Origin: a virus
Direction: 5' to 3' (one strand)
DNA: 54,857 nt
IMG/VR virus record: IMGVR_UViG_3300045988_021436
Span: 1 to 54,857 of that record
Numbering within the stretch: position 1 is the first letter of the stretch; each line of letters starts with the position of its first letter. The translations under genes and the position numbers were made by a program. Positions 26,078 through 39,043 of this stretch are shown in pieces. Below the pieces are notes generated by a model that saw only the letters and a program-made list of their open reading frames with translations, searched no databases and was not told the origin of the DNA.

Positions 26078-26251
26078 ATTTTTTTCTCCCCTTTCTTATT
26101 TTGCCTGTATCGGAACGATTTATATTCCGATCGTCATTACTTTGCAAACAAGCAGCTTTGCCAACCGACACAGGCATACTTGAAATGTAGATGGTTGTAA
26201 GAAATTTTGCAGATTACCAACAACTGCATTTCTTTTTTGTTACATTTCAAA

Positions 26252-26336
26252 CGCAGTGTATAGGAATCGAACCTATTCGCCCTTTCGAATGGCTACCGGT
26301 TAGCAACCGGACACATTACCTCTCTGTCAACACTGC
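26252..26336 (-). tRNA. tRNA-Ser (anticodon GCU), type II with a long variable arm
   Basis: Folded by hand. Acceptor GCAGTGT/ACACTGC, anticodon loop TTGCTAA, variable arm about 17 nt, T arm ATAGG-TTCGATT-CCTAT. Total 85 nt. No encoded CCA. Confidence 0.75.
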
Positions 26337-26694
26337 AAACGGGATTTTTATTCAGAATCCCATAACTGATATACATTTGAATTTTGGTTGGATTAACGCA
26401 CCAACCATACGGATTTTCACGTCTTTTCTGACTAAGACAGTGCTTAGATGTTGTGCAAGCCGCTATTGCCGATGCAGATTTCCTGTGGAATATAATCCAA
26501 AATTAACAGTTGCATTACACCGCCTATTGCGATTCTTTTAATTGCCTAAAGAGGGGTGACAATTTGGGTAACTACCGCAATTAAACCCGAACCCCACCGA
26601 ACCTTGCGACGGTTCTTAACAGCTTTCCGCTAGTGGGTACTTGGGAGGAGCATATGAAAAATGCCCAATCGGGTGTCGGCTAAGAACACCCGCA
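26337..26694 (-). ncRNA. ORF-free, hairpin-dense region of about 358 nt between two tRNAs: candidate structured ncRNA of unknown class
   Basis: No credible ORF on the gene strand. Perfect local stems at 26341-46/26356-61, 26386-91/26401-06, 26599-603/26611-15, 26641-45/26664-68 and 26671-76/26686-91. The region is GC-richer than its flanks. Confidence 0.5.
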
Positions 26695-26766
26695 CAGGGG
26701 TAGACGGACTCGAACCGCCAATAACAAGAATCAAAATCTTGCGCCTTACCGTTTGGCAATACCCCT
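26695..26766 (-). tRNA. tRNA-Gln (anticodon UUG)
   Basis: Folded by hand. Acceptor AGGGGTA/TACCCCT, D arm GCC-AAACGGTAA-GGC, anticodon arm CAAGA-TTTTGAT-TCTTG, T arm GGCGG-TTCGAGT-CCGTC. Total 72 nt. The layout closely parallels E. coli tRNA-Gln. Confidence 0.85.
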
Positions 26767-26772
26767 AGCTTA

Positions 26773-30780: not shown

Positions 30781-31271
30781 ATAACACGTTATCGTTATAT
30801 TGTCAACAAGAATTTTCAACTTTTATAAAAATGGACAATCTTCCTTTCCTTCTTGGCTTTCTAACTCTTCCAGACGATCAAGAACACATTTCGTAATGAA
30901 ACCATTTAGACTATCTCCCGCCGCTGATCTTATGCGCTCCTCGTCTGTCTTCTTAAATCTAACAAGCGTTTTGAAATATGCTTTTTCTTCATATTTGGAA
31001 GTGGCTCTAATATGCGCCGCTGATGTTTTTTTCTTTTCTTCCATGCTCTCTTCCTCCTATATAATGATATCGTGATTTACATTTAACACGATATCACAAT
31101 AACGCTATCGTGTCAACATATAACAACTTTCCTATATAATGATATCGTTATTTTCCTTTCAAAATTTTCTACCAATAATCCAAACTGTGCAATATGTACA
31201 ATAGATATAACGTTATCGTGTTATTATTTGTGCAACATTGGGGTATTGCGTATATAACGTTATCGTGTTAT
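30781..31271. promoter_or_regulatory. Array of at least 7 copies of a TATCGT/ACGATA-containing operator word flanking the RHH gene
   Basis: Exact 20-bp repeat atataacgttatcgtgttat at 31205-24 and 31252-71. Exact 18-bp repeat cctatataatgatatcgt at 31056-73 and 31131-48. Inverted pair acacgata...tatcgtgt at 31086-31112. A further copy ataacacgttatcgttat at 30781-98. Confidence 0.8.
30823..31044 (-). CDS. Ribbon-helix-helix (Arc/CopG-like) DNA-binding protein
   Basis: ...SAAHIRATSKYEEKAYFKTLVRFKKTDEERIRSAAGDSLNGFITKCVLDRLE shows a beta-strand-helix-helix pattern and is surrounded by repeated operator words. Confidence 0.55.
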   Translation of the reverse strand: MEEKKKTSAAHIRATSKYEEKAYFKTLVRFKKTDEERIRSAAGDSLNGFITKCVLDRLEELESQEGKEDCPFL

Positions 31272-31274
31272 AGT
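31246..31274 (+). promoter_or_regulatory. Promoter of the plus-strand operon, with an operator in the spacer
   Basis: TTGCGT (31246-51), a 17-nt spacer, and TATAGT (31269-74). The spacer is the 20-bp operator repeat. Confidence 0.55.
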
Positions 31275-31337
31275 TAATACATCGAAAGGAACAAACAACA
31301 AACCGGATTACCGGAGAATAAGAAAGGGGTTTTAACC

Positions 31338-31457
31338 ATGAAGAATTATAAAGTATATGTAAAAGGAATGTACACAGGAGAAATCGAACTACTTGCAAGC
31401 GAAGTTGTAGCAGTTGAAAGAGATTTCGAGATTAAACTTGTAGAAGTAAGCAAATAG
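31338..31457 (+). CDS. Small protein (39 aa)
   Basis: MKNYKVYVKGMYTGEIELLASEVVAVERDFEIKLVEVSK with the RBS gaaagggg. Confidence 0.4.
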   Translation: MKNYKVYVKGMYTGEIELLASEVVAVERDFEIKLVEVSK

Positions 31458-31595
31458 CATTTTATTTCTGACAATTCCATAATTAGCGGCTGACGTTGAC
31501 AAGATCGGCGGCGGTCGTTAGGTGGATAGCAGAATGTAGGAGCACATCAATTAAGTTAAAAGAAAGGAAGCGCAGAAAGGCGCAAGGTGGATATT

Positions 31596-31928
31596 ATGAG
31601 AAAATTAACAATTGCAGAGAAAAGAGAAAACGCTGTTATCGAGTTAGCAAGCCGTACAAATGGTAACATAGCATCAGCAAGAAAGGCAATGAATGCCTAT
31701 TATAGACTTTGTGGGTTAGAAGAAAGACTATTAATTCTTGAGAATGACGAAAGAACTTGTAACACTCCATACACAAGATCATTACAGGAGAAAGAAGAAA
31801 GAACCATCGAAAGAGTTAAGGGATATTTCAAAGAGTTCAACGCAATTCTTGTATGGTTTGGATATCTTCCGACTATTTGCGAGCCAGGAACCACACAAGA
31901 TTTATACCTGGCACATTTCTACAACTAA
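31596..31928 (+). CDS. Hypothetical protein (110 aa)
   Basis: ATG after aaggtgg. The ORF track starts 3 codons earlier at a GTG. Confidence 0.5.
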   Translation: MRKLTIAEKRENAVIELASRTNGNIASARKAMNAYYRLCGLEERLLILENDERTCNTPYTRSLQEKEERTIERVKGYFKEFNAILVWFGYLPTICEPGTTQDLYLAHFYN

Positions 31929-31975
31929 GCAAGCGCAGACGGTACGGCTCCGGGGTTCAAATCCCCGGCTTGCTT
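31928..31975 (+). ncRNA. tRNA-like acceptor/T-arm minihelix (no D or anticodon arms)
   Basis: AGCAAGC (31928-34) pairs with GCTTGCT (31968-74). An internal CGGGG-TTCAAAT-CCCCG forms a canonical T arm. The element overlaps the stop codon of the upstream gene. Confidence 0.45.
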
Positions 31976-32005
31976 TTACCCGGATAAACGGGATATAATC
32001 AAATT

Positions 32006-32599
32006 ATGAGGTGCTTTATGAAAAAATATATAAGACTTGGAGAAATCCCGGCGGACGGTAAGTCTGTCAATTTTTTAAAATTAACAAAAAATCAAAAAGA
32101 TAACTTCCGTTGTGCAAGCATTCCGGAAGAATGCAAAGAATGCGGAGTATCTGTTTTCGCGGATGGGAAAGACGGTATGCCTGTTTTTGAAAACTTGCGC
32201 CAAGTGTCATCGTTCTGCTGCCGGTATGGAAGCGAAAGAATATACGAAGTGACCGGCGAAGAGGTCGGAAGCGGTCAAGATAGCGAGCCGCTTCTTTCTG
32301 GCGTCGAGATAATAAAATCTCGCAGAATATCGGCAGAAAAGGCAAGAGCCTGTGTCCTTTCTTTTATGTGCCGGAATTTTAAAAATATACAGCCGGGAAG
32401 TGACCCAGATATTGACAAGTTGGGCTTTTTTCATTTTTATGAGGATGAGAGAATAAATATAATCACCGGTGAACGTGTGCCGTCTTTCGCCGCTTGCGGT
32501 TCGGAATGGGTAAAGGTGCCGGGGCGTGACGTTTACACCGTTTGCGGCTGGACATTCTCCGATCCGGTTCCGGGGTTAGATGTGCGACTTGGGATTTAA
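32006..32599 (+). CDS. Hypothetical protein (193-197 aa), GC-rich codon usage
   Basis: ORF with two candidate ATGs (32006 and 32018, the latter after gaggtg). No recognized motif. Confidence 0.5.
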   Translation: MRCFMKKYIRLGEIPADGKSVNFLKLTKNQKDNFRCASIPEECKECGVSVFADGKDGMPVFENLRQVSSFCCRYGSERIYEVTGEEVGSGQDSEPLLSGVEIIKSRRISAEKARACVLSFMCRNFKNIQPGSDPDIDKLGFFHFYEDERINIITGERVPSFAACGSEWVKVPGRDVYTVCGWTFSDPVPGLDVRLGI

Positions 32600-32659
32600 T
32601 TCCAGGGCGTAAAATCATTCCGATCATTTTCTCGTTTCGCGAGATTGGTAGCCGTTTTT

Positions 32660-32695
32660 TTCTTGCTATGCAAGAATAATATTTTGTGGTTTATT
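32660..32695 (+). terminator. Intrinsic terminator of the plus-strand operon
   Basis: TTCTTGC-tat-GCAAGAA (32660-76) followed by a T-rich tract. Confidence 0.6.
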
Positions 32696-32800
32696 TTTAT
32701 TTGTTTTTTAAATAGGCAACCCGTAAGCCTATTATTATCTAAAAATCGAAATTTAGGGCGAAATACGACCTTGTAGCGGTATTTTCTGCCCGTCTGCACC

Positions 32801-32829
32801 TTGACAATTTAACACTACCGGAATATAAT
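32801..32829 (+). promoter_or_regulatory. Perfect consensus promoter (TTGACA-17-TATAAT) with no ORF downstream
   Basis: TTGACA at 32801-06 and TATAAT at 32824-29. Confidence 0.75.
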
Positions 32830-32835
32830 AGCGTC

Positions 32836-33207
32836 AAATAATCCCCTATGTGCTTGTTCCTTTCGATCGTGTACAATCACATACAGGATTTCATATCGGC
32901 GCACTAGGTCTATCTATTGGGCGTTTTTGTCGTGCTTATGATTACGCACGAAAGCACCCGGATAGACGGCTGCCGGATATGTGGCAGATCACACGACCGC
33001 ACAACGCTTTTCACTAAAAACTTCGTCAAAGAGTGCTTTATCTTCACACGAAAAATTCGATTCACTTTTTCAAGTGAAATCTGCAAAAATCGAGCAAAAA
33101 TTTCCAAAATTTTCAATCTCATATTTGGTGTAAAATTTTAAACACAGGGGGGGTTCAAATTCTGTCGGAATATTTTTCGTGGCGGCAAAATTTTTTATTT
33201 TTTTACG
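32836..33207 (+). ncRNA. Candidate non-coding transcript of about 370 nt from the orphan promoter
   Basis: There is no ORF with an SD. Stems include CTGCC/GGCAG (32963-32980) and TTCACTT/AAGTGAA around 33064-33085. The region ends in a long T-tract at 33191-33204. The 3' end is uncertain. Confidence 0.35.
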
Positions 33208-33335
33208 TTCATTGCTCCAAATATCAACGACTTAGCCGCATATTCGCTTTTGCTTAATTCTTCAACCAATTTCTCCCTTGTCATTTCTGGATTAGTCTTT
33301 TGTATATACAATAATATTTCATCTACTCTATCCAT
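33195..33335 (-). CDS. Small protein (46 aa)
   Basis: Its ATG overlaps the upstream stop (ATGGATAG). It is below the ORF-track cutoff. Confidence 0.35.
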   Translation of the reverse strand: MDRVDEILLYIQKTNPEMTREKLVEELSKSEYAAKSLIFGAMNVKK

Positions 33336-33654
33336 ATCTTTTCTCCATAACATTACTCATAATACTATCAGCAATATATATAATATCTCTGCCATATAGC
33401 GACATAAAATCTGCAATTATTTCTTCTGTCTGTATATCTATATTGCAGTTATTTTCAAAGCTATAAACGTGTACCAACTCATGGCACAACACCTTGTTTG
33501 TCATGTAATCAGACATACCGTAAGCAATTGTTACCGTCTTGGTGTTGTTGTCGGTAACACCTAGTGTATATACATTGTCACTGCGTCTTAATTCTTCACT
33601 ATTCGGGCTTGCAAACTGCAACGTCCACCGGTTGTTATTTACTGTAAATTTCAT
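33328..33654 (-). CDS. Small HExxH zinc-metallopeptidase-like protein
   Basis: The CHELVHVYSFEN motif in a 108-aa protein. Confidence 0.45.
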   Translation of the reverse strand: MKFTVNNNRWTLQFASPNSEELRRSDNVYTLGVTDNNTKTVTIAYGMSDYMTNKVLCHELVHVYSFENNCNIDIQTEEIIADFMSLYGRDIIYIADSIMSNVMEKRYG

Positions 33655-33703
33655 GGGACCACCTCAAAACAGGCTATGAGTATTGCACCCATAGCCCTTA
33701 ATT

Positions 33704-34342
33704 TTACTGAATTTTTTGCATCAAAATCTGCATTTTTGTTCTTAAAAGGTTCTTCTCTTCGTCAGACATATCCGATACCATTTCAACTACATCTTCCGTA
33801 AGAGACTTTGCATACCTTTCCAACTCCTGCATTTTAGCTTTCTTATCTTCCGGTGTATTACCTCTGTGCATTTCCTTTGTCTCTGTGTATGTTCTCTTTG
33901 CACGATCATATCCACTCTCATTCATGTTGGTTTCCGTGTAATACATTCTGCTATGCGTATCTCTATCCATGTCACGGTACATTTCCGGTGTCATGTGATA
34001 ATATGGCGGTTCTTCGTATCCTCTTCGGTATGATCCATGCCCTTTTGGTGCAAATCTTCCACTTGCATATCTGTAGTGATCATAGTATCTTCTTCCGGCA
34101 TCTTCTCCGTACTCTTCTTTCAGTTCACGAAGCAAAATCTTTTCGTACTCTTCTTCCTCTTCATCAGCTTTTTTCATAGCCTTTACGATTACCGCTTTAT
34201 ACTCTGCTTCGTTAAGGTCTTTAATCATATCTACCACTTGTCCCATTTCGCAAGTGTCAACATTTTCTGTGCCTTTTTCAAGTTCACATAATGCTTTTTC
34301 GGTTAGACATTCAATCATTTTGTGCATTCTTTCAATGTGCAT
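33704..34342 (-). CDS. Hypothetical acidic, Tyr/Arg-rich protein (212 aa)
   Basis: ORF with low-complexity segments EEEEEYEK and RRYYDHYRYASGRF...YRRGYEEPPYYH. Confidence 0.5.
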   Translation of the reverse strand: MHIERMHKMIECLTEKALCELEKGTENVDTCEMGQVVDMIKDLNEAEYKAVIVKAMKKADEEEEEYEKILLRELKEEYGEDAGRRYYDHYRYASGRFAPKGHGSYRRGYEEPPYYHMTPEMYRDMDRDTHSRMYYTETNMNESGYDRAKRTYTETKEMHRGNTPEDKKAKMQELERYAKSLTEDVVEMVSDMSDEEKNLLRTKMQILMQKIQ

Positions 34343-34353
34343 AACATCACCCC

Positions 34354-34776
34354 CTACGCTTCACGAACCGCAATCAAGTTAGCATTTTGCACTTCAATAG
34401 CTTGCGTAGAAGTATTCTGTACCGCTACTGTACTGCAACATCCGCAAGGTACATCAATGTATGCCTGTGCTGATACGTTAAAGAAATTTTCTACTGCTGC
34501 CGGTGTAACAATCATTCTTGTTGACTGCAAAGGCTCACCATCTACCGCAAGCGCAAGTGAGATAGCTTCAACCGTACCGCCTGTTGGTATCTGAATATTT
34601 CCACTAAACGATACAAGAAATCTTGCTCTGCACTGGTTTGTAATACCTCTTAACTTGACAATTCCACTTCCCTGTCTATGAACAATACATTTGCTACCGC
34701 CCACCGGTGTTTCTGTTAATGCAACATCTTCTCCGGCTGCAACTGTTTGTAATGTAATTCCTGTAAATTCTGCCAT
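34354..34776 (-). CDS. TNF/C1q-like jelly-roll protein resembling BclA-C-terminal-type spore-surface domains (weak call)
   Basis: The beta-strand periodicity of GIVKLRG...ARFLVSFSGNIQIPTGG...ISLALAVDGEPL...YIDVPCGCCSTVAVQNTS..IEVQNANLIAVR supports the fold. The start was chosen at the ATG after gagaggt. Confidence 0.35.
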   Translation of the reverse strand: MAEFTGITLQTVAAGEDVALTETPVGGSKCIVHRQGSGIVKLRGITNQCRARFLVSFSGNIQIPTGGTVEAISLALAVDGEPLQSTRMIVTPAAVENFFNVSAQAYIDVPCGCCSTVAVQNTSTQAIEVQNANLIAVREA

Positions 34777-34905
34777 TTTATTTACCTCTCTTTCAAAAAA
34801 TAAGGGCAAACATATTTCAGTCTGCCCTTTTGCTTACAAGTAATACCGCTTTTGCAGACATAATCGAGTTAAACTCAATTAAGATACTCAATTATTCTGT
34901 TGTAA

Positions 34906-35661
34906 TTAGCATCCGCAACTCTGGTTGCATCCGCATCCATAAGCGTATGCATTTGGATTTGGAACAACATATGCCGGGATTGCTGGTGGGTTTACAGCAT
35001 TGATAATCTGGCTTGTCTGCGCTGTCATTGCAGTAGTCAAAAGTGCGTTCTGTCTATCCTGTGATGCAGCGTGTCTAAGATCGTTGTTCTCTGCCTGTAA
35101 TGTTGCAATCTTATCCTGGCACAAATAATCTAAGATACTACGTGTGCTATCCGCAATTGCCTGTCTTGTCTGGCAAGCCTGTGTAGCCATATTGTAGTTA
35201 GTGTCGGCAAATCCTCTTTCGATCTGTCTCTGTGTTTCACAGCAACATGAAGCGTTCTGTGCCGCCATGTTGGTAAGCGTTGACTGAATGGCATTTGTGT
35301 TCTGCATTCCACTTACTGTATCAGCGTTGATTGCCTGCTGAATACCAAAGCCGGTTTGCAGAATATTTGTGTTGATACCATTCATCTGTGCTAACTGATC
35401 GTAGCCGAGACTGCAAATACCATTGTTGATACCATCAAGCTTTGAAACAACCGCCTGATTATCAAAACCTCTCTGAATTGCCGCATCGGTATAACCATTT
35501 CCGGCACCGTTACCGCCCCAGCCATTACCGCCGAAGCCTCCCCATCCGAAAATCAAGAGAATGACAATCCACCAAGCACCATCGCCCCACATGCCATCGT
35601 TGTTTCTGTTGTTGCCCGTTACTGCCGCAATATCGGCAAGGCTTACTCCGTTGTTAAACAT
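34906..35661 (-). CDS. Membrane-anchored Gly-rich / Gln-Asn-rich protein with a Cys-rich C-terminus
   Basis: WWIVILLIFGWGGFGGNGWGGNGAGNG, an internal CCC, and a C-terminal YGCGCNQSCGC. Confidence 0.5.
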   Translation of the reverse strand: MFNNGVSLADIAAVTGNNRNNDGMWGDGAWWIVILLIFGWGGFGGNGWGGNGAGNGYTDAAIQRGFDNQAVVSKLDGINNGICSLGYDQLAQMNGINTNILQTGFGIQQAINADTVSGMQNTNAIQSTLTNMAAQNASCCCETQRQIERGFADTNYNMATQACQTRQAIADSTRSILDYLCQDKIATLQAENNDLRHAASQDRQNALLTTAMTAQTSQIINAVNPPAIPAYVVPNPNAYAYGCGCNQSCGC

Positions 35662-35743
35662 ATTAGTTTACCTCCATTTGTTTATTTACAAATAGGGAAC
35701 CGTGGTTTTTGTTGTCCGGACAAAACCCTAATATGTACTAGAT

Positions 35744-35971
35744 TTATCTAAACATTTGCTTTATTTCGCTCATGCTTAAACCATTTTCGCCCATAAAATT
35801 ATTAAGTGTCTGCTCTACGCCTGCCATGTTTCCAGACTGGATATTCTGCAAAATTCCGTTTGCCATTTGATTTCCTTGTCTTGCTGCATTCTGTAATACT
35901 TGCATAGCTGCCTGTTGCGGATTTCTGATTGATTTTAACTGATTGATTGCTTGTATCATCTGCTGATTCAT
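35744..35971 (-). CDS. Small Gln/Asn-rich protein (75 aa)
   Basis: ORF. Its stop overlaps the upstream stop/start region. Confidence 0.45.
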   Translation of the reverse strand: MNQQMIQAINQLKSIRNPQQAAMQVLQNAARQGNQMANGILQNIQSGNMAGVEQTLNNFMGENGLSMSEIKQMFR

Positions 35972-36498
35972 TATGCTTCACCTCCGCTTGCATCATCTTC
36001 AACCAACTTTTGGCTAGTTTTAGATTTAGTCGAAGATTTAGTTAAGGATTTAGTCAAAGATTTTTCATCAATTTTCTTCTCCAATTCGTCTATCTTTGAA
36101 AACAAGGTATCAAAGTGTTTCTCAAATACATCTGTAACGTTCTCTGATAGGTCAATTTTCAATTTTTCTGTTTCTGACGATAACTTGTTAGGGTTATCTG
36201 CTAAAACAGGCTTAAAAACGCTTGTAGAGATTTTCCCGTCCGTTCCCCATTGTTTAGCATAAATTTCCGACAAGTCACTTTTAGGGAAGAATGCAACTGC
36301 ACCATTCATAGGTACATCACTAGGAATTATATTTTCTGCGTCCTGTACCACTTTACCAAACAACCCGGATTGCATTTGAAACTCCTGTTGAGGTTGATAC
36401 CTCTGCTGCATATTTCCTATTTGGTTGTATTGATATGCCGGATATTGCGGCATATAACTATTCATCTGTTGCTGATAAGGATTGTTGTTTATATTCAT
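35971..36498 (-). CDS. Protein with a Q/N/Y-rich N-terminus and a KSLTKS-repeat tail
   Basis: MNINNNPYQQQMNSYMPQYPAYQYNQIGNMQQRYQPQQ.... The ATG follows ggagg. The ORF track starts at an upstream TTG. Confidence 0.5.
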   Translation of the reverse strand: MNINNNPYQQQMNSYMPQYPAYQYNQIGNMQQRYQPQQEFQMQSGLFGKVVQDAENIIPSDVPMNGAVAFFPKSDLSEIYAKQWGTDGKISTSVFKPVLADNPNKLSSETEKLKIDLSENVTDVFEKHFDTLFSKIDELEKKIDEKSLTKSLTKSSTKSKTSQKLVEDDASGGEA

Positions 36499-36616
36499 CT
36501 TCGTATTCCTCCATTGATCTTTCAATTGCGTGTACTACCCTTGATTGTGTTTCACAATCCAATTCTTGTAATTCTGGCTTTGCAAAAATAATTGATAACA
36601 ATTCATCCGAAAACAC
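36458..36616 (-). CDS. Possible small leader ORF (52 aa, GTG start)
   Basis: A GTG 7 nt after aaggagg. The ORF overlaps the next gene by about 40 nt. Confidence 0.3.
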   Translation of the reverse strand: MFSDELLSIIFAKPELQELDCETQSRVVHAIERSMEEYEDEYKQQSLSATDE

Positions 36617-36649
36617 GGTAACACCTCCTTATGCCTTAAATTTTGGCAT

Positions 36650-36671
36650 AAAAAAAGACGGTGTAACCGCC
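36650..36671 (-). terminator. Intrinsic terminator T2 downstream of int/attP
   Basis: Minus-sense GGCGG-UUACA-CCGUC followed by seven U. Confidence 0.6.
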
Positions 36672-36702
36672 ACAAAACCGACATTTTACCGCCATTTCTG
36701 AA

Positions 36703-36738
36703 CAAAAAAATAACACCTCAAATTTCTTAGGGTGTTAC
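36703..36738 (-). terminator. Intrinsic terminator T1 downstream of int/attP
   Basis: Minus-sense UAACACC, a 13-nt loop, and GGUGUUA, followed by seven U. The stem is built from the arm-repeat word. Confidence 0.6.
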
Positions 36739-36951
36739 CTTAGGTGTTACCTCCACTCAAAACTAAAGATTATAAGCACCATTCAAATTGCTCCTTTCTT
36801 TAGTAAATCCAAGTGTTTTATAGTATTCAGTTAAAAACTAAAAGTAGTAGCGGAAGGGAGATTCGAACTCCGTACAAAACCCCGTTTTCCCCTTTAAAAT
36901 CAAGGCTTTCAGCAATCAACAAGGTGTTACTTCGTGTTGCTTTTGTGTTAC
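36711..36951. repeat. GGTGTTAC-type repeats flanking the att core (candidate integrase arm-type sites)
   Basis: GGTGTTAC at 36731-38, 36743-50 and 36923-30. Variants GTGTTGC at 36934-40 and GTGTTAC at 36945-51. An inverted TAACACC at 36711-17. Confidence 0.6.
36846..36872 (-). other. attP core candidate: copy of a tRNA 3' end (T loop plus 3' acceptor strand)
   Basis: Minus-sense GGAGTTCGAATCTCCCTTCCGCTACT. There is no matching 5' half, so this is not a tRNA gene. It lies 80 bp downstream of the integrase stop. Confidence 0.55.
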
Positions 36952-36953
36952 TT

Positions 36954-38186
36954 TTATGCCATTAACGCTTCGTTGATAGCTTTCGCTATTTCTTTGTCTG
37001 ACTTATTCAGCTTGTAATAATATCTTCTTGTTGTTTCTATGTCTGAATGCCCCATCTGGTCTATGATAACACTGTCCGGCACCTTTGCATCTATTAGCTT
37101 TGTTCCATATGTCGTTCTTGCCTTGTGCATTGATCTGTATTCAATACCCACATTGTCGCATATGACATATAGTTTTCTGCTAAACGCTTGCGCCTTTACT
37201 CTCTTTCCGTTTTTGCAAAACACCCATTCCCCAAACGGATTCATTGATCGAATTTTTTTAATTATCCGTATTGCTTCATCCGTCAGAACAACTTCCCTGT
37301 ACCCGGCATCCGTTTTTGGTAATTCTTGTCTCTCAAAAACATATCTTCCGTCTTCGCCACGGTATCTAACCTCTGTACCAGAAACAGAAATATATTTTGG
37401 GTAAACATCTTGCCATCTTAATGCTGCTATTTCTCCGGCTCTCAAACCGGTTTGAAATGCTAATGCAATCCCAAGTCCAATTATTGTTGGGTTTTCCATG
37501 ATAAAACTTTCCACCATTTTTTCTTCGTTTGAGAAAAATACTTTTTGATGCGGGTTTATCATTACCCTCTTAAATGACCGGTTGGATATGTCTAAGTCTC
37601 CCATGAAATTTGTTATGCTTAAATCTGTGTAACCATGTTTTTTCGCATACTTCCAAATTCCGTTTATTAAAATCCGCATATCTCCGTATGCCTTGCTTGT
37701 CAATTCCAAATCAGCAATCGTGACTTTTATAAATTCTTCCAGTGTATCTTCACCAATGTATTTGATTTTCTTATCCGCAATCGGAATTGATTTGTTTTCA
37801 AAAAACCTCTTGAAATTTGTGTGGTATTTATCATTTGTCTGTGGTGTTATCTCTTTCAGCCTTAATTTGTTTTCAATCCACATTCGGAAAACATCTGAAA
37901 CATAAGGTTCTTCTTCAACAGACTTATAATAATCCACTATTGCACTATTCAACTCCTCTTTTGCATTTCTCCTTATCAACCTCTTTCCTCTTTTGGCTTT
38001 CTGGTCTGGGATGTATGTATAATACTTTCCGTCTTTGCCTTGCCAAATCTTGTGTTCGTGTTGTTCTAAAAATTTTTTTCTTTCGCTCATTTCGATATTT
38101 TTTTGAATGGTGCTACGGTCAATAATACCATTTTCAATTGCATATTTCAACAGGTCACTGTCTGATATTTCTTCCACCAACATCAC
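36954..38186 (-). CDS. int: Tyrosine recombinase / phage integrase (410 aa)
   Basis: ...GLRAGEIAALRWQDV..., ...HKARTTYGTKL..., ...MGHSDIETTRRYY match the catalytic R...H-x-x-R...Y boxes. The N-terminus is SAM-like. Confidence 0.9.
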   Translation of the reverse strand: MMLVEEISDSDLLKYAIENGIIDRSTIQKNIEMSERKKFLEQHEHKIWQGKDGKYYTYIPDQKAKRGKRLIRRNAKEELNSAIVDYYKSVEEEPYVSDVFRMWIENKLRLKEITPQTNDKYHTNFKRFFENKSIPIADKKIKYIGEDTLEEFIKVTIADLELTSKAYGDMRILINGIWKYAKKHGYTDLSITNFMGDLDISNRSFKRVMINPHQKVFFSNEEKMVESFIMENPTIIGLGIALAFQTGLRAGEIAALRWQDVYPKYISVSGTEVRYRGEDGRYVFERQELPKTDAGYREVVLTDEAIRIIKKIRSMNPFGEWVFCKNGKRVKAQAFSRKLYVICDNVGIEYRSMHKARTTYGTKLIDAKVPDSVIIDQMGHSDIETTRRYYYKLNKSDKEIAKAINEALMA

Positions 38187-38382
38187 CCCCTGTCTTTTTC
38201 TTAATTTCTCTTACTCTTCTTTCCACCGTCCGTAAGGATAAGCACATCTTCATGCTGATTTCCTTTTGGGAATAACCACGGAAGAGAAATCTAAATATCT
38301 GTTCCTCTTCCGCAGTAAAATTGGCGTTCTCTAGCATCTTTTCAAGTTCCGGCTTTGTGAGTTTTGAATAATTCACTCCCAT
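38155..38382 (-). CDS. Sigma-70 region-4 / LuxR-type HTH protein (75 aa)
   Basis: EEEQIFRFLFRGYSQKEISMKMCLSLRTVERRVREIKKK. The gene overlaps the int start by 32 nt. Confidence 0.55.
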   Translation of the reverse strand: MGVNYSKLTKPELEKMLENANFTAEEEQIFRFLFRGYSQKEISMKMCLSLRTVERRVREIKKKTGGDVGGRNIRQ

Positions 38383-38395
38383 AGCCGTTTCTCCT

Positions 38396-39043
38396 TTACT
38401 TCTCCCTAATCATTTCTTGATATTCTATATATCTTCTGCTTTCTCTCTTTTTGACTTCTTCTCTCGCCTTTTTGCTTGATTCTGAATCTACAACCTTTAA
38501 AATTTTTCCGTAACACTCTTCGCATACGTTGTAATCTTTGTACGTTTCTTTTCCGCAATTGGAACACAACCCGTTTTCCAACCAGATAATGTGCAAACTT
38601 TTATCCGTTCCTCTTTTCCTCAACGAATATGACTTCATGTATTCTCTTCTCTTTTTCTTGCAAACATCACACGTTGCACAACCAACATCTGCCTTTCTTT
38701 TTCTGCAACTTGTACAAATACCGTTTTCCCTATCTTTCTTTCTGTTTCTTTTTCTGCTTTCGTAATCTGATTTTAACTTTAAATCCATGTTTCTCTGTAC
38801 GTACTTGTCGTTTATCGCTCTACATTCCGGGCAATTTTTTTCATCTCCGATCAGCTTATTCTTTCCGCATCTCGGACACAATCCAAGCATTCTTCTAAAT
38901 TCTCTCGTTTCCTGTGCTTCTTTTGTGTTTTTCTCTTTGCAAGCTTCACATGTTGTTTTTCCTTTTCTCTCTGGTTCAATCTCTTTTCCACAATCTGTAC
39001 ATAGCCCGTTGGCTTTTCGGTAATAATACGTTTTTTTGCTCAT
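38396..39043 (-). CDS. Multi-zinc-ribbon protein (at least 8 CxxC pairs)
   Basis: Repeated C-x2-C...C-x2-C units throughout the 215 aa. Confidence 0.5.
   Translation of the reverse strand: MSKKTYYYRKANGLCTDCGKEIEPERKGKTTCEACKEKNTKEAQETREFRRMLGLCPRCGKNKLIGDEKNCPECRAINDKYVQRNMDLKLKSDYESRKRNRKKDRENGICTSCRKRKADVGCATCDVCKKKRREYMKSYSLRKRGTDKSLHIIWLENGLCSNCGKETYKDYNVCEECYGKILKVVDSESSKKAREEVKKRESRRYIEYQEMIREK

Follow-up and report, generated by a model that had tools for sequence, protein, structure and literature searches.

The window analysed here, the whole of IMG/VR record IMGVR_UViG_3300045988_021436 (54,857 nucleotides), is a ~55-kb phage genome that has almost all of its genes on the minus strand; close to its integrase gene it carries eight small genes of unusual composition, here called A to H. 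Comparison with other phages indicates that the centre of this set belongs to a conserved, mobile cassette of five to ten genes that is present in thousands of gut and rumen phages. Its core consists of a stand-alone helix-turn-helix (HTH) gene and the genes B-C-D-E-F, to which one gene for a small peptidase-like protein is added. The reading that we favour, with a probability of about 0.4, is that the cassette encodes a non-enzymatic, self-assembling complex which is centred on proteins D and E, is cell-side and membrane-associated, and is made in the cytoplasm of a cell in which the phage develops. The parts come from known folds and families (C1q/TNF-like, LuxR/GerE HTH, HExxH), and the system as a whole has no known counterpart. 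No function is assigned to the gene set in Pfam, NCBIfam, PADLOC, the PDB or the literature searched, in which queries on PHROG numbers, on links between phages and TNF-like proteins or endospore appendages, on BclA in Lachnospiraceae prophages and on C1q-like gut-phage cassettes turned up no description of the module. An earlier reading of this DNA (the original prediction), which likewise knew of no such system, had taken A to H for prophage cargo that forms a spore-coat-type or envelope structure, an interpretation that our results support in part.

That these genes form a functional system would follow above all from their strict co-inheritance. The comparison, by tblastn and iterated profiles, covered phage records, 80 IMG/VR loci picked by E and 71 loci drawn from species-representative genomes, in which E is 36-89% identical; synteny was counted in loci with room for the gene set. 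Of 104 such loci, 102 (52/52 of the close and 50/52 of the diverse ones) have B, D, E and F within 5 kb, in the same order and co-oriented; independent occurrence, which the original prediction had named as evidence against a joint role, is thus not what the genomes display. Between B and D, 49 of 61 diverse loci have a C-like open reading frame (ORF) of 40-130 amino acids (aa) with a median of 29% Gln plus Asn (Q+N) and a recurring ..LLNSGQ(I/V)SQxQxNQ.. motif, as read off 15 sequences, and the C profile also matches in C. perfringens phage XP41-N3. The F profile family follows E directly in 155 loci. Moreover, upstream of B there is a 66-90-aa HTH homologue in 51/52 of the close and 29/57 of the diverse loci (80 in total); it adjoins B in 38 of the loci and stands 1.4-1.8 kb off in 40, with an integrase gene between, as in the window. 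Since the HTH gene lies upstream of the integrase gene, the cassette reaches past A to H, and the integrase gene, the putative phage attachment site (attP) and A all fall inside it. At least 7946 clusters of E homologues at 90% identity (747 clusters at 50%), at least 7878 homologues of D and 5190 of B, none of them named, were found. Each of A to H has protein-level homologues in tens to hundreds of loci, which tells us that all eight are real genes, and they are present on the minus strand with every motif previously quoted for them. They do not form a unit of eight, as had been supposed, because a core gene, that of the HTH protein, lies outside the set and because A, G and H are largely restricted to the clade of the window. 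A is found in 88 loci overall, with 45-59% protein identity in close loci, and most diverse loci lack it; H is found in 76 loci, nearly all in the close clade; and G adjoins the cassette in the window's clade only.

The cassette takes up very different places in different genomes. It sits beside the integrase gene and attachment site in the window's clade and in Dulem virus 39; between a MuF-like minor head gene and the genes for scaffold and major capsid protein (MCP) in ~18 of 62 diverse loci and in Dulem virus 35; after the endolysin gene, often ahead of an integrase gene or a conserved 116-aa gene, in Ceridwen and others; between antirepressor and Gam/Erf genes in the early region of XP41-N3; and between the small terminase gene (TerS) and the MCP gene in the crAss-like phage cr116_1. 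In the window, PHROG matches place anti-repressor, tail fibre, tape measure, major head protein, portal and large terminase within 545-23597 and replication-type genes lie above 39000, so that the cassette is more than 10 kb from structural genes. Six relatives with the same portal-minor head-scaffold-MCP block (minor head proteins 43-63% identical) have these genes directly adjacent, with no cassette. In addition, the G+C content of the cassette in the window is 0.41-0.43 versus ~0.36 nearby, and 63% of its Gln codons are CAG (in D, 21 CAG versus 1 CAA), against 66% CAA in other phage genes. The varying positions, the cassette-less relatives and the differing G+C content and Gln codon use lead us to regard the cassette as a dispensable, horizontally moving insertion. 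The variable position and the lack of the cassette in all six block-sharing relatives speak against a role as core virion structural genes, and the genes are not in general att-proximal lysogenic-conversion cargo, about a third of the diverse loci lying inside a head-gene operon and others after the endolysin gene or among early genes.

Bacteroides and crAss-like phage hosts form no endospores, and Butyrivibrio fibrisolvens is non-sporulating. The cassette nevertheless extends to phages of these hosts, even if most carriers infect Lachnospiraceae, Oscillospiraceae or Clostridia; Lachnospira intestinalis CLA-AA-H89B and Lachnospiraceae JLR.KK009 are two bacteria in which the cassette is found. 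The plaque-isolated Bacteroides phage C3_41T2LP and crAss-like cr116_1 have a D homologue (profile E-value ~1e-43 to 1e-49). Behind it come a beta-rich CC-motif protein, one that combines beta structure with a coiled coil and a K/S/T tail, a small protein rich in R, D and Y (F profile E-value 9e-4; 77 aa in the Bacteroides phage) and an HExxH protein. In Ceridwen, D and E (46% identity) are accompanied by genes resembling B, C and F and by a gene for a protein with conserved Cys, His and Asp; no integrase is annotated in the 12.5-kb stretch around its cassette, and the phage has been observed in the lytic cycle only, on Butyrivibrio fibrisolvens, and is considered virulent by its authors (PMC7372960). 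The presence of the cassette in Bacteroides, crAss-like and Ceridwen phages means that neither the spore surface nor lysogenic conversion can be the common role, and the cassette is neither a moron confined to temperate phages nor restricted to phages of endospore formers. We therefore consider it very improbable that these genes are lysogenic-conversion cargo which builds a disulfide-cross-linked layer or appendage on the spore surface or cell envelope of the lysogen. This reading can draw on the best structural matches of E, which are exosporium and appendage proteins, on the GerE family of the stand-alone regulator, on a Tyr/Arg-, Gln- and Cys-motif-rich composition reminiscent of coat proteins, on the predominance of Lachnospiraceae, Oscillospiraceae and Clostridia among the hosts, and on close relatives integrated in the host gene sigF, in which the cassette is directly downstream of, and co-oriented with, spoIIAA-spoIIAB-sigF'. 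Besides the host range, it has to contend with the many copies inside head operons, with the lack of any Pfam-A match to C1q/BclA_C, DUF3992 (Ena), Coat_F, GerQ or another coat family, and with the lack of a sigma-70-like promoter between attP and A; moreover, a prophage in sigF would block sporulation, not decorate spores, unless excised.

E is the most conserved member of the cassette, with a median pairwise identity of 52% versus 35-42% for B, D and F, and is thus the slowest-evolving. Its AlphaFold2 (AF2) model, built on 30 sequences, is all-beta (predicted local distance difference test, pLDDT, 72; predicted template-modelling score, pTM, 0.69) and at the level of the fold fits the C1q/TNF-like superfamily of ten-strand jelly rolls of ~130-150 residues. 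In Foldseek searches of the PDB the top match was the C-terminal domain (CTD) of the F-BclA tip fibrillum (9h38, E-value 2e-6, TM score 0.71), followed by EDA-A1, 4-1BBL, BxpB/ExsFA and C1q domains, and all 26 matches with E-values of at most 1e-3 were TNF, C1q, BclA or BxpB proteins, which bears out the earlier suggestion of a BclA-C-terminal/TNF-like fold. The 100 matches in BFVD include stand-alone phage proteins of 130-142 aa, one of them named 'BclA protein', as well as C1q and collagen-like virus proteins and tail-fibre knobs. By sequence, E has no Pfam C1q, BclA_C or TNF match (E-value up to 1), no NCBIfam match and no significant PDB match. A BclA-type collagen-like (G-X-Y) stalk is absent, the domain starting at residue 1, and the best 150 representative homologues (76-196 aa) are all stand-alone, none of them carrying a shaft. 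An invariant Cys pair, C113-C114, lies far from the position of the N-terminal Cys connector of Ena subunits, and neither E nor the protein that takes its place in XP41-N3 has a DUF3992 or other Pfam match. The latter is an unrelated beta-type protein of 125 aa (L085 5676-6053) which begins MTCNRRCNCCNRR, with an N-terminal Cys cluster resembling an Ena connector, and which has no Pfam or PHROG match.

D is found in all diverse phages, the Bacteroides and crAss-like ones included. It has an acidic N-tail, a hydrophobic segment (WWIVILLIFGW) between Gly-rich runs, long Q/N-rich helical regions and a Pro-rich C-terminus, and its motifs comprise GWGGFGGNGWGGNGAGNG, CCC and the C-terminal cluster YGCGCNQSCGC. 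Across six distant homologues W31, the Gly run, C139-141 (the CCC) and C243 in the C-terminal GC are invariant, and no stretch is conserved enough for an alignment-based genome scan. A hydropathy scan of B-F found a hydrophobic segment in D alone; the same scan found no signal-peptide-like hydrophobic N-terminal stretch in B-F, no dedicated signal-peptide predictor having been run. Two GenBank records label D homologues 'spike protein/glycoprotein' and 'outer capsid protein/viral fiber', labels that we attribute to compositional PDB likenesses of the Q/N-rich helical regions. On the same grounds we rejected the likeness to coronavirus HR1; that to Skp is compositional too, and a DNA pilot protein of the phiX174 H type was discarded as well, since the best PDB profile match (4jpp, E-value 0.17) has a bias as large as its score.

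C, D and B contain more Q+N (33%, 20.7% and 16.3%; mean 8.9%, standard deviation 4.3) than any other gene product among the window's 99 proxy ORFs; their ranks in the full list are first, second and fifth, since two short out-of-frame or edge ORFs come between. The description of the proteins as Cys-rich holds for clustered, invariant motifs (CCC in D, CC in E) and not for bulk content, which at 4.0% in D and 3.6% in E is unexceptional (mean 2.8%, standard deviation 2.4). B begins MNINNNPYQQQ and ends in a KSLTKSLTKSSTKSKT tail; its layout is a Q/N/Y/P-rich disordered N-terminus, a beta domain of ~50 aa, one long helix and a basic K/S/T-rich tail, and its AF2 model has disorder at 1-45, four strands at 47-95 and a helix at 119-152 (pLDDT 55, which is low), with no match below an E-value of 0.2 in fold searches. 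The stop codon of B overlaps the start of C (ATGA), which suggests translational coupling. F has helical acidic N- and C-terminal parts around an R/Y/D/G-rich low-complexity centre, and its relatives have RRDSMGRYS-type cores. None of B, C, D and F receives a Pfam, NCBIfam, PADLOC, PHROG-function or PDB assignment. Pfam searches with distant homologues and with 125 family members (B, D, F and Cys/His/Asp; 36 of them F) returned nothing, and PDB sequence and profile searches gave no significant match for E, B, D, G or the Cys/His/Asp family. For A-H as a whole, Pfam, NCBIfam and PADLOC yielded nothing beyond weak peptidase matches for G, the single PADLOC entry being ZorA to B at an E-value of 0.13, with none below 0.1. 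The PHROG families of B, D and E (21718, 16490, 20016) and family 1233 are of 'unknown function', and 13742 is a 'peptidase'. The proteins thus resemble no virion, lysis or replication family in Pfam, PHROG, NCBIfam or PADLOC, as had been claimed.

The HTH protein, which its position and synteny mark as the putative regulator of the cassette, matches Pfam GerE (PF00196) at 1.7e-6 (28.0 bits, cut-off 23.5), and within its family GerE is matched by 17 of 37 members and Sigma70_r4 by 11-12 of 37. Its gene overlaps the start of the integrase gene, which ends 340 nucleotides (nt) upstream of A; among loci with E ~90% identical, the integrases are merely 23-58% identical or absent. A putative attP may lie within ~300 nt downstream of the integrase gene, at ~36660-36950, and the earlier placement of the genes next to attP thus gains indirect support: many IMG/VR proviral contigs terminate ~150-450 nt upstream of A, and in an integrated relative (L086) the host/prophage junction is ~120 nt upstream of A and homology to the window begins only at 36660. 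The minus strand of 36840-36950 contains GGAGTTCGAATCTCCCTTCCGCTAC, which resembles a tRNA T-arm plus acceptor 3' end and is called as a tRNA fragment by neither Rfam nor ARAGORN, as well as several direct and inverted GTAACAC motifs that are possibly arm sites or HTH sites. Rfam finds two tRNAs in the window and nothing else, and nothing in 31000-37100 even at E-values up to 1, which argues against a known leader or riboswitch ahead of A. A consensus scan detected no sigma-70-like promoter from the integrase stop to A and no clear terminator after H; the hairpin before A has an equivalent in L086, and in another relative (L144) one follows the HTH gene ahead of B. The D-E hairpin is followed by a weak promoter-like site (34796-34767), and L144 has a 12/12 sigma-70 consensus promoter between D and E. 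A scan of the region for direct and inverted repeats showed the coding repeat of the KSLTKS tail and no other. Judged from these consensus-level signals, the cassette would be the distal end of an HTH-integrase transcription unit in the circular genome and would be severed from it in the prophage. Because the integrase gene and attP lie inside the cassette, it could be read from the HTH-integrase operon only in the circular genome, which would place its expression in lytic development. Circularly permuted 55-kb contigs of the same phage are present in human gut metagenomes; a search for exactly this phage in integrated form recovered circular or phage-form contigs only.

On this basis we propose that a hydrophobic N-terminal segment between Gly runs anchors D, most probably in the cytoplasmic membrane, the short acidic N-tail lying outside and the bulk inside, and that D may form an oligomeric, Q/N-rich coiled-coil stalk. 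The Cys triplet and the C-terminal Cys cluster of D would tie it, via metal or disulfide, to a trimeric E through the Cys pair of the latter, while B, C and F, with their low-complexity and short folded or helical parts, could serve as assembly partners or matrix, and a small peptidase (G in the window) might mature or clear a component. A structural character is consistent with the lack of any enzyme domain in B-F (125 members scanned), the predicted jelly roll of E and the helical, Q/N-rich D, and Cys linkage with the invariant Cys of D and E and the CC-containing equivalents in Bacteroides cassettes. We favour assembly on the cell side because the cassette is often among early genes, has its own regulator and an anchor-like protein, and would otherwise have to serve very different particles. 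Candidate purposes would be exclusion of superinfecting phages, lysis control or the organisation of phage development at the membrane. Several observations weigh against this proposal. The hydrophobic segment of D is short, and its maximum Kyte-Doolittle hydropathy over 19 residues (KD19), 1.27, makes it a borderline transmembrane helix; promoters and terminators were called by simple consensus matching; placement between minor-head and scaffold genes or after the endolysin gene implies late expression and fits a virion-attached structure equally well; viral C1q/TNF-like domains are mostly fibre knobs, as among the BFVD matches; and a module of five proteins greatly exceeds known exclusion proteins in complexity, with nothing found by PADLOC.

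Many copies are located in head or late operons, and TNF-like domains commonly serve as fibre knobs, which makes a dispensable virion appendage a serious rival, even though we think it rather unlikely. A D trimer would then form a coiled-coil shaft (fibritin-, sigma1- or head-fibre-like) that is fixed to the particle by its hydrophobic N-terminus and capped by E as a knob, with B, C and F as assembly chaperones or adaptors and Cys cross-linking after release. Such an appendage might bind a common gut ligand, for example glycans, and this would account for E being conserved in phages that infect different hosts. The order portal, MuF-like minor head, cassette, scaffold, MCP in the head operons, the copies at the end of late operons after the endolysin gene and the TerS-MCP location in cr116_1 all agree with it, as do the relatives of the E fold among BclA tip domains, collagen-like virus fibres and tail-fibre knobs; the lack of hydrophobic N-terminal stretches is expected of particle parts assembled in the cytoplasm, and dispensability fits decoration proteins. 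It is harder to reconcile with the cassettes of the window, XP41-N3 and C3_41T2LP, which are remote from structural genes and have early, recombination or lysogeny genes as neighbours, with the possession of a separate HTH regulator, and with the need to dock on very different particles, from siphoviruses with unrelated head modules to a crAss-like podovirus. Furthermore, prion-like and R/Y-rich disordered proteins and a peptidase would be unusual fibre accessories, and none of the best 150 representatives of E is joined to a shaft.

Exclusion or defence is a possible purpose of the cell-side assembly that we propose, and can also be considered by itself, as a superinfection-exclusion or anti-phage module that is a moron in temperate phages, is used early in virulent ones and forms a membrane complex which blocks the entry or development of competitors. 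The positions of the cassette next to int/att, after the lysin gene and inside structural operons are classic for morons and defence genes, with HK97 gp15 as a precedent for insertion inside a structural operon. Dispensability, horizontal mobility, the fast evolution of B, D and F and carriage by temperate and virulent phages alike point the same way. We nevertheless regard this reading as quite unlikely, given that PADLOC returned no match, that no nuclease, NTPase or other effector domain is present, that known exclusion systems consist of one or two small proteins, that the most conserved member is a putative TNF-like trimer without an obvious effector role, and that no promoter for prophage expression was detected in the window.

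More speculatively, and with considerable doubt, the cassette may encode an undescribed phage-built assembly common to Bacillota and Bacteroidota phages, in which a keratin-like, anchored coiled-coil D with a Gly-rich head, a Q/N-rich rod and a Cys-rich tail joins with a TNF-like trimer and with disordered proteins of prion-like or R/Y-rich type into a body that is cross-linked or resembles a condensate. Such a body could surround released particles or lie at the infected cell's membrane. It would represent a phage 'organelle' or coat of a new class, equipped with a regulator and a maturation peptidase of its own. The features discussed are collected in Table 1.

Table 1. Genes and signals of the cassette region, in the direction of the minus strand (positions in the window; pI, isoelectric point).
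Feature	Position	Strand	Basis
LuxR/GerE-type (sigma-70 region-4-like) HTH protein, 75 aa, stand-alone	38155..38382	-	Pfam GerE and synteny
Tyrosine integrase, not part of the cassette, inserted between HTH gene and A	36954..38186	-	Pfam Phage_integrase 1.4e-20, phrog_1
Terminator-like hairpin and T-run, just upstream of the ribosome-binding site of A	36657..36671	-	consensus scan
A, acidic protein, 52 aa, pI 4.2, clade-specific accessory	36458..36616	-	ORF and homologues
B, core member	35971..36498	-	phrog_21718 1.3e-11
C, core member, small Q/N-rich protein, 75 aa	35744..35971	-	ORF
D, core member	34906..35661	-	phrog_16490 1.4e-34
Terminator-like hairpin, 10-bp stem, in the 130-nt D-E gap	34802..34829	-	consensus scan
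E, core member, stand-alone predicted C1q/TNF-like jelly roll, 140 aa, PCGCC	34354..34776	-	phrog_20016 1.3e-70
F, core member	33704..34342	-	ORF and profile family
G, HExxH protein, 108 aa, putative small metallopeptidase	33328..33654	-	CHELVH motif
H, 52 aa, overlapping the end of G, clade-specific accessory	33195..33353	-	ORF and homologues

The small peptidase-like protein differs between carriers. G remains below threshold in Pfam, with DUF6782 at 3.7e-4 (20.3 versus a cut-off of 27), M78 at 7.7e-3 (16.5 versus 22) and SprT-like at 0.05, and matches phrog_1233 at 1.2e-12 and phrog_13742 ('peptidase') at 6.5e-8. The last gene of the Bacteroides and crAss-like cassettes encodes an HExxH protein, in one case annotated as a PolyVal metallopeptidase. 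Instead, 53 diverse loci have a protein of ~125 aa with invariant Cys, His and Asp (phrog_3754), in 38 of them directly upstream of B; the window lacks this protein and has G. Neither A nor H has a family match (for A, in Pfam, PHROG, NCBIfam and PADLOC).

Some neighbouring genes may belong with the cassette in particular clades. Directly upstream of the HTH gene, at 38396-39043 on the minus strand, the window encodes a 215-aa protein with many CxxC pairs, 7.9% Cys and a faint double-zinc-ribbon Pfam match, which has homologues in 34 related loci and may be a clade-specific companion. Around 15 diverse loci have, just upstream of the HTH gene, a single-pass membrane protein of ~110 aa with a conserved external motif YQYDFTGTIEQTGVYTLIDSQGN (L094 6496-6900, L099 6460-6792, L100 7194-7523, L144 6989-7312, L083 3687-3968 and, here downstream, L105 7435-7785); the cassette may be larger in these loci, and the window has no homologue. 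In the same place Dulem virus 35 has an ORF, XhlA-like by eye, whose product has a coiled coil at the N-terminus and a hydrophobic segment at the C-terminus. On the other side, a conserved 197-aa protein with 5.1% Cys and no family match is encoded on the opposite strand just past the cassette, at 32006-32599 (+) and at L086 12570-13181. Downstream of H, the ~600 nt at 32600-33195 have no convincing ORF and no Rfam match. A perfect sigma-70 consensus promoter (TTGACA, 17 nt, TATAAT) at 32801-32829 (+) is convergent with the 3' end of the cassette and could drive an antisense or small-RNA unit. Further on, at 31950-31968 (+) and right after the plus-strand ORF 31587-31928, CCGGGGTTCAAATCCCCGG forms a T-arm-like hairpin that could be a tRNA remnant or an old att scar. 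The two tRNAs of the window are at 26694-26767 and 26251-26337. Among 13 loci scanned with ARAGORN, all nine relatives with any tRNA (L007, L022, L027, L038, L047, L055, L086, L092 and L100) have tRNA-Gln(UUG), and L022 and L038 additionally have a suppressor-type tRNA with anticodon TTA. We rejected the idea that this tRNA-Gln(UUG) serves the Q-rich genes, because these genes prefer CAG.

The relatives integrated in sigF are of interest in their own right. L086 (8677-9046; ENA ERZ27287442 k141_750256) is 92% identical to the window in nucleotide sequence over the cassette and is integrated inside the host sigF gene (spoIIAC), in the order spoIIAA, spoIIAB, sigF truncated after ...STYAVPMI (82 aa), ~120 nt and gene A, all in the same orientation. 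In two other hosts sigF is broken at the same residue (L053 9-110, L087 1-78), at the equivalent of the window just upstream of 36660. No description of sigF-intervening prophages was found in the literature searched, and integration at this site may matter for the loss or control of sporulation in gut Lachnospiraceae.

The cassette is among the more abundant functional dark matter of gut phages, and it crosses the divide between Bacillota and Bacteroidota as a moving unit without a recognisable enzyme. Solving it could reveal a new principle in the relation of phages to their hosts or environment, be it exclusion, lysis control, particle protection or adhesion, and a function would annotate five PHROG families that are now 'unknown'. 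Experiments are within reach, as there are three cultivable carriers, Butyrivibrio phage Ceridwen, C. perfringens phage XP41-N3 and Bacteroides phage C3_41T2LP.

Finally, we compared the cassette with known systems. With the BclA CTD, F-BclA and BxpB/ExsFA (PDB 9h38, 8d02, 7r5i, 9h3d), E shares its predicted fold and its size (Foldseek E-values 2e-6 to 1e-3, TM scores 0.65-0.72); like BxpB/ExsFA it is a stand-alone domain without a hydrophobic N-terminal stretch, and as in the exosporium and appendages of Bacillus it stands among proteins with Cys motifs. However, its sequence identity to BclA and BxpB is 11-16%, with no Pfam match; unlike BclA, it has neither a collagen-like stalk nor an N-terminal anchoring peptide; it is encoded in phage contexts alone, including phages of non-sporulating hosts; and the exosporium set has no counterparts of its partners B, C, D and F. 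The fold is also that of viral TNF/C1q knobs, such as tail-fibre C-termini, giant-virus collagen-like proteins and the BFVD 'BclA protein', and the stand-alone phage proteins of 130-142 aa in BFVD match E at TM scores of 0.75-0.83. Unlike such knobs, E lies outside tail-fibre regions, is never fused to a shaft among its best 150 representatives, and is the most conserved, not the most variable, member of its module. D can be likened, by analogy only, to T4 fibritin, the phi29 head fibre and reovirus sigma1, in that a hydrophobic N-terminal anchor is followed by polar, heptad-like helices, but sequence similarity is not significant (compositional matches, E-values of at least 0.17), and those fibres lack the Gly-rich flanks, the CCC and the CGC tail of D.

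The HTH protein is GerE-sized and above the Pfam GerE threshold, as expected of stand-alone GerE/LuxR regulators, from which it differs in being phage-encoded and equally near to sigma-70 region 4 models. The PolyVal metallopeptidase domain is reportedly found among small phage HExxH proteins, as described by Iyer et al. in 2017. G and the last gene product of the Bacteroides and crAss-like cassettes are likewise small HExxH proteins, although G is below every Pfam threshold and stands alone, outside any polyvalent protein, and in most Bacillota cassettes the unrelated Cys/His/Asp protein replaces it. Known superinfection-exclusion morons, namely lactococcal Sie2009, S. thermophilus Ltp, HK97 gp15 and T4 Imm, are single small proteins. 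In common with them, the cassette is accessory, mobile, located next to int or in structural operons, and includes a protein with a single hydrophobic anchor; no homology to them and no PADLOC match was found, and the cassette differs in being a conserved ensemble of five to ten genes that includes disordered proteins and a putative TNF-like trimer.

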